Virus record (IMG/VR): IMGVR_UViG_3300029258_003011
From: a virus
Direction: 5' to 3' (one strand)
Length of the DNA stretch: 50,432 bases
The position numbers and the translations under genes were made by a program. Positions 12,376 through 13,123 of the stretch are shown here, in pieces; position 1 is the first letter of the stretch, and every line of letters begins with the position of its first letter. The notes below the pieces were generated by a model, which was given only the letters and a program-made list of their open reading frames with translations, had not been told where the DNA came from and did no database searches.

Positions 12376-12699
12376 TCAAATTATAGTTAATAAAATGATT
12401 AATGCTGCAATTACAGTAAAGAAAATCTTCCACCAAATATTCATTTTCTTTCCTGGTTTGGTTTCTGGTTTAATAAAATGTTTCTCCCCTTCTTTATCAA
12501 AATAGAAAGGAAAAGGACTTGCCTCCGTTTCTTCATCCCATACCTCAACTCCCATTCCATGATGAAAAACCCATTTGCCTGGTCTCGTCTCTACTTGAGC
12601 TTTAAAATAAGGAAGTGCTCGTGGGCAAATTTCGCTACAGTTTCCATCCAATAAGCATTCAAAGCATGGGTCATCTGGATCCCTCTCTTCTATACTCAT
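12376..12699 (-). CDS. Hypothetical small membrane-anchored protein (N-terminal Cys cluster, C-terminal TM helix)
   Basis: 'CFECLLDGNCSEICP' followed by C-terminal 'IWWKIFFTVIAALIILLTII' hydrophobic helix. Confidence 0.4.
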   Translation of the reverse strand: MSIEERDPDDPCFECLLDGNCSEICPRALPYFKAQVETRPGKWVFHHGMGVEVWDEETEASPFPFYFDKEGEKHFIKPETKPGKKMNIWWKIFFTVIAALIILLTII

Positions 12700-13123
12700 T
12701 TCGTAACTCCATCAAAAGTTTGCCTAACATATTAAGACCCTTACCGTTAACTTGTCCCCAAAAATCGTCTCCCCAATTATTTCCTTCAATAAGAACTGCG
12801 TCTCCCGTTTCTAAAAGTTTTTGTTTTATATCTTCATTCTGGTCAAATTTAAACCTTAATGCCTTTCTCATAATATCAATTGATATGTCGTGCCAGTTAT
12901 CTCCTTGAATCCCTGCTCCAAGTGCCTTTGCTTTTCCTGGAGATGGAGCAACACTTATCATAGCTTTTCTTATCGGGTCATCAGTTTTTGCTGCTTGATA
13001 ATAATGCTCAGATGTTGCCCAATGTACTCCTTTTTCATCAACAAAGCTATGTAATGAAAAATTTGATAAAAATCTATATTTTCCTCTAAATTCGCCTATT
13101 GTGTCCATTGCTGTGAGCATCAT
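12671..13123 (-). CDS. NADAR (YbiA/DUF1768) domain protein, putative ADP-ribose processing hydrolase
   Basis: 'FLSNFS...WATSEHYYQAAK' and 'GDAVLIEGNNWGDDFWG' match the NADAR family consensus. 150 aa. Confidence 0.7.
   Translation of the reverse strand: MMLTAMDTIGEFRGKYRFLSNFSLHSFVDEKGVHWATSEHYYQAAKTDDPIRKAMISVAPSPGKAKALGAGIQGDNWHDISIDIMRKALRFKFDQNEDIKQKLLETGDAVLIEGNNWGDDFWGQVNGKGLNMLGKLLMELRNEYRREGSR

Follow-up and report, generated by a model that had tools for sequence, protein, structure and literature searches.

The DNA considered here, 50,432 nucleotides from the IMG/VR virus record IMGVR_UViG_3300029258_003011 (the window), carries all its genes on the minus strand. One of them, which starts with the ATG at 13123 and whose stop codon ends at 12671, encodes a protein of 150 amino acids (aa) with a NADAR domain, and this gene is the subject of what follows. 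It has a Shine-Dalgarno sequence of its own, and it lies in an insertion of four genes together with a major vault protein (MVP) homologue, an all-coiled-coil protein and a small Cys4 membrane protein (Table 1).

Family, fold and active site

The open reading frame (ORF) is a real, intact gene, and its assignment to the NADAR family goes far beyond chance. The Pfam profile NADAR PF08719 (DUF1768) matches residues 15-143 with E=1.4e-28 and 100.6 bits at a cutoff of 35.1, and PHROG 1017 matches with E=2.9e-42. Among proteins of solved structure, HMMER finds Escherichia coli YbiA (PDB 2B3W) with E=2.6e-19 and the Phytophthora nicotianae NADAR (8BAU; Pn in residue labels) with E=1.6e-10. There are 490 database homologues at E<=1e-5, and stand-alone homologues of the PHROG 1017 type are present in 470 phage records. 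The three motifs that an initial annotation, made from the letters alone, had quoted as NADAR hallmarks are all present, as F18-L-S20-N21-F22, W35-AT-S38-E39-H-Y-Y-Q-A-A-K46 and G114-N-N-W117-G-D119-D-F-W122-G123 (residues 114-123).

An AlphaFold2 model built with 120 homologues has a mean predicted local distance difference test score (pLDDT) of 94.3 and a predicted template modelling score (pTM) of 0.88. When this model is compared with the PDB by Foldseek at E<=0.001, it matches only YbiA 2B3W, with a template modelling score (TM) of 0.81, and the Pn NADAR-ADP-ribose complex 8BAU, with a TM of 0.80. It has the alpha-helical core and the small flanking beta elements of these two structures, that is, the NADAR fold.

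The active site can be read residue by residue from the HMMER alignment to 8BAU, where the Pn numbering is fixed by the fact that all eleven residues listed as contacting the ligand by Schuller et al. (PMC11543638) fit the chain at an offset of 2; conservation is counted in the alignment of the 120 homologues. The roles of the Pn residues in ADP-ribose binding and catalysis are taken from PMC11543638 and PMC12945103. E39 is the equivalent of Pn E43, assigned in the literature to the distal ribose, and K46 that of Pn K50, a phosphate contact whose counterpart in E. coli C7, K95, is essential. K66 corresponds to Pn K75 and to C7 K115, which is required in vivo against DarT1. The diphosphate is contacted by Pn W89 and W133, the equivalents of W77 and W122, and through water by Pn D130, the equivalent of D119. 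E113, finally, aligns with the catalytic Pn E125, the residue that defines the YbiA-type subfamily. S20, N21, E39, K46, E113 and D119 are invariant in all 120 homologues, and K66, W77 and W122 are nearly so. The residues found important by mutagenesis (S20, E39, K46, K66 and E113) are thus retained, with D119 and W122 also present, and in SCO5665 the Glu at the position of E113 is essential (PMC12945103). By alignment, then, the active site is intact; the absence of key catalytic residues, which the initial annotation had named as the observation that would speak against it, was not what was found.

Within the family, the protein is a core-only NADAR of the Glu type, or YbiA type, as given by E113 under the subfamily criterion of PMC11543638. 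The profile of the 120 homologues, searched against the PDB, finds YbiA at 1.4e-44 and the Pn NADAR at 3.8e-25, and at E<=0.01 it detects no structure of the DarG1 type. No DarG model was matched in a PADLOC scan, where the only match was to the candidate-system protein PDC-M42C. Membership among the DarG1/BC4488-type antitoxins is rejected on these two results. Membership in the T4 AdfN (gp30.3) group is rejected as well: PF08010 gives 18.2 bits at a cutoff of 36, PHROG 652 is matched at 4.5e-5 as against the far stronger match to PHROG 1017, and BLASTP aligns T4 gp30.3 over 47 aa with E=0.012. Nor is there a fusion to RibA or RibD or a linkage to riboflavin genes: the gene stands alone, and Pfam finds no rib genes among the ORFs of the window.

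The closest relative of known function is NADAR-Bas32 (bas32_0066) of the T5-like Escherichia phage IrisVonRoten, which lets three DarTG1-sensitive phages regain several logs of plaquing and neutralises DarT1 also in uninfected cells (PMC11257639, Johannesman et al.). The two proteins are 42% identical over 142 aa (E=7e-31), and both belong to PHROG 1017, which Bas32 matches at 1.2e-44. Both are core-only proteins of about 150 aa with the same Ser/Glu/Lys/Glu set in the active site, encoded by stand-alone phage genes amid genes of DNA metabolism. They differ in that the phage lineages and hosts are unrelated, and in that the anti-DarTG1 activity has been demonstrated for Bas32 and is predicted here. 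The initial annotation had foreseen that a grouping with riboflavin-intermediate N-glycosidases only would tell against its proposal. The grouping with YbiA is indeed found, but not the "only", and since the same group holds this validated anti-DarT1 phage enzyme, the grouping does not decide against de-ADP-ribosylation.

NADAR proteins occur on the side of host defence as well, as in the NCBIfam family NF053876 ("DS32_2 NADAR family anti-phage protein") and the PADLOC candidate system PDC-M42. The matches of the present protein to these models are weak, with 57.6 bits for NF053876 (cutoff 240) and 35.5 bits for PDC-M42C.

A variant rim around the ligand

The six sequences closest to the protein (P0001-P0006) are monophyletic in a neighbour-joining tree, and their sister group has the ancestral state of the rim described here. 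The subclade is set apart from the rest of the family by a one-residue deletion and by coordinated substitutions at positions 71, 74, 76, 78 and 81. Its ribose-binding and catalytic centre is kept, while the charged rim at 70/71/74/76/78/81 has been jointly replaced.

Three basic residues are affected, and their placement relative to the ligand is by sequence alignment to 8BAU. Position 70 is R or K in 86 of the 120 homologues and A70 in the protein; in Pn it is R79, which contacts the diphosphate. Position 74, which is R in 93 and R or K in 97 homologues, is G74 and aligns approximately with Pn Y84, which stacks on the adenine. Position 81, K or R in 110 homologues, is S81, where Pn has the diphosphate contact R93. 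Loss of all three is seen only in the protein's own subclade, in which the rim stretch reads AKALGAGIQ-GDNWHDIS; NADAR-Bas32, in contrast, retains the basic rim AKRRGRKLTLRSDWDKVK.

Two flanking acidic residues have disappeared alongside the basic ones (D76 to N, and E or D at 78 to H or Y). Because of this joint loss, the change may be the swap of a salt-bridge network rather than a simple loss of binding. The isoelectric points (pI) in the subclade are 5.6-7.9, compared with a family median of 8.6. T4 AdfN and NADAR-Bas32 are also near neutral (pI 7.8), and yet both act on DNA.

The insertion and its surroundings

Table 1. Features of the NADAR locus and of the rest of the window. Positions are those of the window.
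Feature	Position	Strand	Basis and remarks
NADAR-domain gene, 150 aa; predicted YbiA-type, core-only ADP-ribosyl/ribosyl N-glycosidase	12671..13123	minus	ORF, Pfam PF08719, PHROG 1017, AlphaFold2, Foldseek, invariant residues
Shine-Dalgarno sequence AAGGAGA	13129..13135	minus	5 nucleotides (nt) upstream of the NADAR ATG at 13123; read from the sequence
Four-gene insertion (vault homologue, coiled-coil, NADAR, Cys4 membrane protein)	12376..16940	minus	between 324-aa gene (16943-17917) and AAA gene (11122-12354)
Cys4 tail-anchored membrane protein, 107 aa, motif DPCxxCLLxxxCxxxCP	12376..12699	minus	ORF
All-coiled-coil protein, 344 aa	13180-14214	minus	phrog_29668 and weak SMC/ZorA-tail-like matches; immediately downstream of vault homologue
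Vault-protein (MVP) homologue, full length, 849 aa	14304-16853	minus	Pfam MVP_shoulder 5.3e-20 and Vault_3
Perfect 8-bp GC-rich hairpin (GGAGGGGA, 8-nt loop, TCCCCTCC)	13144..13167		between coiled-coil stop (13180) and NADAR start
Second perfect GC-rich hairpin	14256-14278		flanks coiled-coil gene
Imperfect 12-bp hairpin	16893-16921		just upstream of vault gene
RNA polymerase beta, unsplit, 1363 aa	20438-24529	minus	
RNA polymerase beta', unsplit, 1001 aa	24548-27553	minus	
QueD/6-carboxytetrahydropterin synthase-like gene	5274-5687	minus	PF01242 1.3e-30; TIGR03367 83 bits, just under cutoff
Purine-type phosphoribosyltransferase	557-1042	minus	
RtcB ligase	2712-3842	minus	RNA-repair-like; scattered
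AAA_33 (polynucleotide-kinase-like) kinase	40772-41269	minus	RNA-repair-like; scattered
LigD-type 3'-phosphoesterase	43032-43439	minus	RNA-repair-like; scattered
Metallophos phosphoesterase	1412-2416	minus	RNA-repair-like; scattered

The gene of the Cys4 membrane protein overlaps the 3' end of the NADAR gene by 29 nt, and the same overlap is found in three related contigs (L005, L016 and L017). From this overlap it follows that the two genes are probably co-transcribed and translationally coupled. In this lineage the overlap is always present. The membrane protein itself, in which the Cys4 motif is invariant, has no family match in Pfam, PHROG or NCBIfam. The initial annotation had the NADAR gene follow the membrane protein and a MoxR/VWA pair; these are indeed its neighbours, but with transcription from the minus strand the NADAR gene comes first.

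Upstream, the vault homologue aligns collinearly with the MVP of human and rat (residues 482-786 against 478-802, E about 5e-14). Related contigs keep it, and the homologue in the 735-kilobase (kb) phage LR756501 is 40% identical to it; for MVPs of viruses and bacteria the only reports are preprints (10.1101/2023.11.10.566534, 10.1101/872010). The hairpin next to the NADAR start is possibly a weak terminator or an RNA-stability element by which the NADAR unit is set apart from the gene upstream. Of perfect GC-rich hairpins whose stem has at least 8 bp, the whole 50-kb window contains just two, both of which flank the coiled-coil gene, and these two and the imperfect one all lie inside the insertion.

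In the closest relatives, where the NADAR is 58-75% identical, the gene order is strictly vault homologue, 340-aa coiled-coil protein, NADAR, Cys4 protein of about 100 aa, AAA ATPase, DUF2201/VWA protein and GyrB. In more distant relatives (AAA protein 53-60% identical, contigs up to 152 kb) the homologue of the 324-aa gene instead abuts the AAA gene directly (L021, L023 and L024), and in one contig (L022) the slot is occupied by an unrelated, very basic protein of 382 aa (L022 3792-4940). Because of these contigs, three without insert and one with an unrelated insert, the four-gene set is an insertion specific to this lineage, in a slot whose content varies, and the junction of the 324-aa gene and the AAA gene appears to be a hot spot of insertion. 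The same comparison disposes of the MoxR/VWA context to which the initial annotation had drawn attention: L021, L023 and L024 keep the AAA-VWA-GyrB order without a NADAR, with the backbone gene abutting the AAA gene, so that the pair belongs to the conserved backbone and its proximity is incidental. A second NADAR-VWA adjacency is found in an unrelated, gp32-encoding phage contig (L014 8001-9262), where a VWA gene comes directly after the NADAR homologue P0009, probably by coincidence.

The window belongs to a large uncultured phage, and its other genes encode the beta and beta' subunits of a multisubunit RNA polymerase, subunits of a type II topoisomerase, RecA, a ribonucleotide reductase, a clamp loader, baseplate proteins and RNA-repair-type functions. 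No phage isolate has a beta' subunit that is more than about 29% identical to this one, and for this reason the lineage is taken to be one without a cultured relative. A DNA search for a close one gave only a weak match to the uncultured phage LR756501. That phage (LR756501.1, L028) has a PHROG-1017-like NADAR on the plus strand (3247-3726), 39% identical to the present one and with the basic rim retained. Its vault homologue (10371-12800) lies 6.6 kb away on the minus strand, with a prohead protease, a dUTPase and a DUF5662 protein between the two.

Phage homologues of the NADAR often adjoin DNA or RNA ligases. In Bacillus phage SPbetaL3 (L010) a homologue with 44% identity (5001-5438) lies 3.4 kb upstream of the annotated anti-Gabija gene gad1 (8802-9689), a position consistent with an anti-defence neighbourhood. 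Possible partners in the window were looked for by Pfam among ORFs of at least 90 aa, and no phage ADP-ribosyltransferase, macrodomain, Nudix or NAD-salvage protein was found. The QueD-like gene and the phosphoribosyltransferase hint at a metabolism of 7-deazaguanine or pterins, but the window showed no TGT/DpdA, QueC or QueE. Modification of guanines by the phage, should it occur, could bear on the substrate specificity of the NADAR.

Predicted function and its alternatives

It is homology that points to a substrate and to a role in counter-defence. Every NADAR subtype tested, YbiA included, removes guanine-linked ADP-ribose from DNA in vitro (PMC11125620, Cihlova et al.). The NADARs tested also reverse ADP-ribosylation of RNA guanosine (PMC11833690), and those of the YbiA type act on cytidine-linked ADP-ribose (PMC12945103). 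YbiA itself, the best solved relative with 34% identity, is known as a riboflavin-intermediate N-glycosidase that removes guanine-linked (PMC11125620) and cytidine-linked (PMC12945103) ADP-ribose in vitro as well. It shares the Glu at the subfamily position with the present protein, and both pass the NCBIfam model TIGR02464. YbiA differs in its longer N-terminus, in being basic (pI 9.4 against 6.9) and in its operon, which is LexA-controlled and also contains dinG and ybiB.

Since YbiA de-ADP-ribosylates guanine and the Bas32 relative neutralises DarT1, the best reading is that of an anti-DarT1-type enzyme. There is about an even chance that the protein is a nucleobase-ADP-ribose N-glycohydrolase, which reverses ADP-ribosylation of the phage DNA by a DarT1-like or pierisin-like transferase of the host. 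The location of the gene is counted in favour of such a role, because accessory and anti-defence genes are often found in variable slots, and for a counter-defence or auxiliary gene it is a more natural place than for one with a core function in replication.

The enzyme would cleave the N-glycosidic bond that joins the distal ribose of ADP-ribose to the amine of a nucleobase in single-stranded DNA or RNA, namely N2 of guanine and possibly cytosine as well. From NADARs that have been solved and mutated it is predicted, by analogy, that the distal ribose is held and activated by E39 and E113, the latter serving as catalytic acid, while the diphosphate would be held by K46, K66, D119 and W122. 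Free ADP-ribose and the restored base would be the products. The likeliest task in the phage would then be to erase the ADP-ribose marks set by a DarT1-like (or pierisin/ScARP-like) host defence, such that replication can continue.

Two other kinds of NADAR help to place this proposal. T4 AdfN (PF08010; PHROG 652) is likewise a small, core-only phage NADAR and exemplifies the same logic, that of an orphan-antitoxin-like counter-defence. Its sequence similarity to the present protein is marginal, its PHROG is a separate one, and NADARs of this phage type have His at the position of Pn E125, where the present protein has Glu113 (PMC11543638, PMC12945103). AdfN is effective only during infection by T-even phages, a restriction that its authors put down to the hydroxymethylated DNA of these phages (PMC11257639). 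The DarG1/BC4488 antitoxins of E. coli C7 and Geobacter lovleyi share the NADAR fold and, to judge from sequence, the same predicted chemistry of guanine-ADP-ribose hydrolysis, with C7 E88, K95 and K115 in the places of E39, K46 and K66; no DarT1 gene adjoins the present one. Of the anti-DarTG-type function that the initial annotation suggested, the family and the 42% identity to an anti-DarT1 enzyme stand; the protein is, however, of neither the DarG1 nor the AdfN type, and the role is deduced from its relatives.

Several observations weigh against the proposed role. Pfam scans of the window found no DarT and no ADP-ribosyltransferase of another kind, and none is known for the host. The protein lacks the N-terminal beta1-beta2-alpha1 extension that gives DarG1 its basic DNA groove: its core begins near residue 8-15 of 150, and the AlphaFold2 model has no such extension. 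The catalytic Asp171 of DarG1 (C7) is Glu113 here. The match to TIGR02464, "riboflavin biosynthesis intermediates N-glycosidase", reaches 82.7 bits at a cutoff of 73.7. Within the lineage the gene is strictly kept down to 58% identity, which would also fit a housekeeping role. In cells, neither YbiA nor T4 gp30.3 gave E. coli protection against DarT1, although both are active in vitro (PMC11125620), and because of this failure activity in vitro is no guarantee of a role in vivo. Lastly, the losses at A70, G74 and S81 may weaken or change the recognition of ADP-ribose as read from the alignment, and it is mainly on account of these changes that hydrolysis of ADP-ribosyl adducts by the protein in vitro is rated below near certainty.

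The same chemistry could be directed mainly at RNA, with the NADAR repairing ADP-ribosylated guanine or cytosine in tRNA, rRNA or mRNA after the attack of an RNA-targeting toxin, alongside the RNA-repair genes of the phage. This is unlikely, although all NADARs tested reverse the modification of RNA guanosine (PMC11833690), the window has RtcB, the AAA_33 kinase, the LigD 3'-phosphoesterase and Metallophos, and NADAR homologues occur near Rnl1 and RtcB, an association with RNA repair having been proposed in PMC9503650. These genes lie 9-30 kb from the NADAR gene and outside its insertion, the sole in vivo phenotype of a close relative, that of Bas32, concerns the DNA-targeting DarT1 (PMC11257639), and NADARs are inactive on RNA that is ADP-ribosylated at phosphate ends or at the 2'-OH (PMC11833690). 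A metabolic auxiliary function is given only a small probability: here the protein would be a YbiA-like damage-control N-glycosidase acting on ribosylamino-pyrimidine intermediates of riboflavin synthesis or of other GTP-derived pathways. Its score with TIGR02464, YbiA as best solved relative and the YbiA-type Glu all suit such an enzyme, and with QueD/PTPS and the purine-type phosphoribosyltransferase the phage appears to handle GTP-derived intermediates. The window, on the other hand, has no ribA, ribD or other riboflavin genes by Pfam, the closest relatives are stand-alone phage genes rather than RibA or RibD fusions, and Bas32 at 42% identity has a demonstrated anti-DarT1 function. As enzymes of the YbiA type also de-ADP-ribosylate nucleobases, the match to TIGR02464 does not discriminate between the two possibilities.

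Other alternatives move the substrate away from nucleic acids. It is improbable, but predicted for most phage NADARs by Iyer et al. (PMC9503650), that the protein degrades small immune signals derived from ADP-ribose, such as isomers of cyclic ADP-ribose (cADPR) or His-ADPR in TIR/Thoeris-type systems, which have an N-glycosidic ribosyl bond, and so acts as an anti-signalling enzyme. A small-molecule substrate would suit the loss of basic surface residues, the pI of 5.6-7.9 and the lack of a nucleic-acid-binding extension, and the remodelled ADP-binding rim could mean a different ligand geometry. The cited literature, by contrast, describes NADAR activity on nucleobase-linked ADP-ribose or riboflavin intermediates and none on such signals, and the near-neutral T4 AdfN and NADAR-Bas32 nonetheless act on DNA. 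In a related proposal, to which a similarly low chance is assigned, the rim-remodelled subclade with its coupled Cys4 gene is a NADAR retargeted to another ribosyl N-glycoside, which could be an immune signal derived from ADP-ribose or a non-ADP ribosyl adduct, in place of the canonical product of DarT1, and it would possibly act at the membrane. Very improbable, finally, is a tie to the co-inserted vault homologue or to MoxR/VWA, with removal of ADP-ribose in a phage "vault" that would echo the vPARP vaults of eukaryotes. The NADAR and the MVP-like gene do share one insertion, the two occur in LR756501 as well, and another phage has a VWA gene directly after its NADAR. Yet three other phage loci with MVP have no NADAR within 8 kb, the pair in LR756501 is on opposite strands with unrelated genes between, relatives hold the AAA-VWA genes without a NADAR, and no ADP-ribosyltransferase was found in the window. 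With a NADAR near only one of four other MVP loci, and there 6.6 kb away on the opposite strand, a link to the vault protein is not supported.

That phages encode NADARs, that these are widespread in large phages and that they have an anti-DarTG1 role has already been published (PMC11125620, PMC11257639, PMC9503650), and no new kind of biology is opened by this one. What is new is its setting in a lineage-specific insertion of four genes and the rim variant specific to its subclade. Phage NADARs have only recently been shown to act as an orphan-antitoxin-like counter-defence against DNA ADP-ribosylation, and the present gene extends the family to an uncultured phage lineage of about 150 kb from environmental metagenomes, which has a multisubunit RNA polymerase of its own. 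As a natural variant, the rim of this subclade could help to define the contacts that set the substrate specificity of NADARs.

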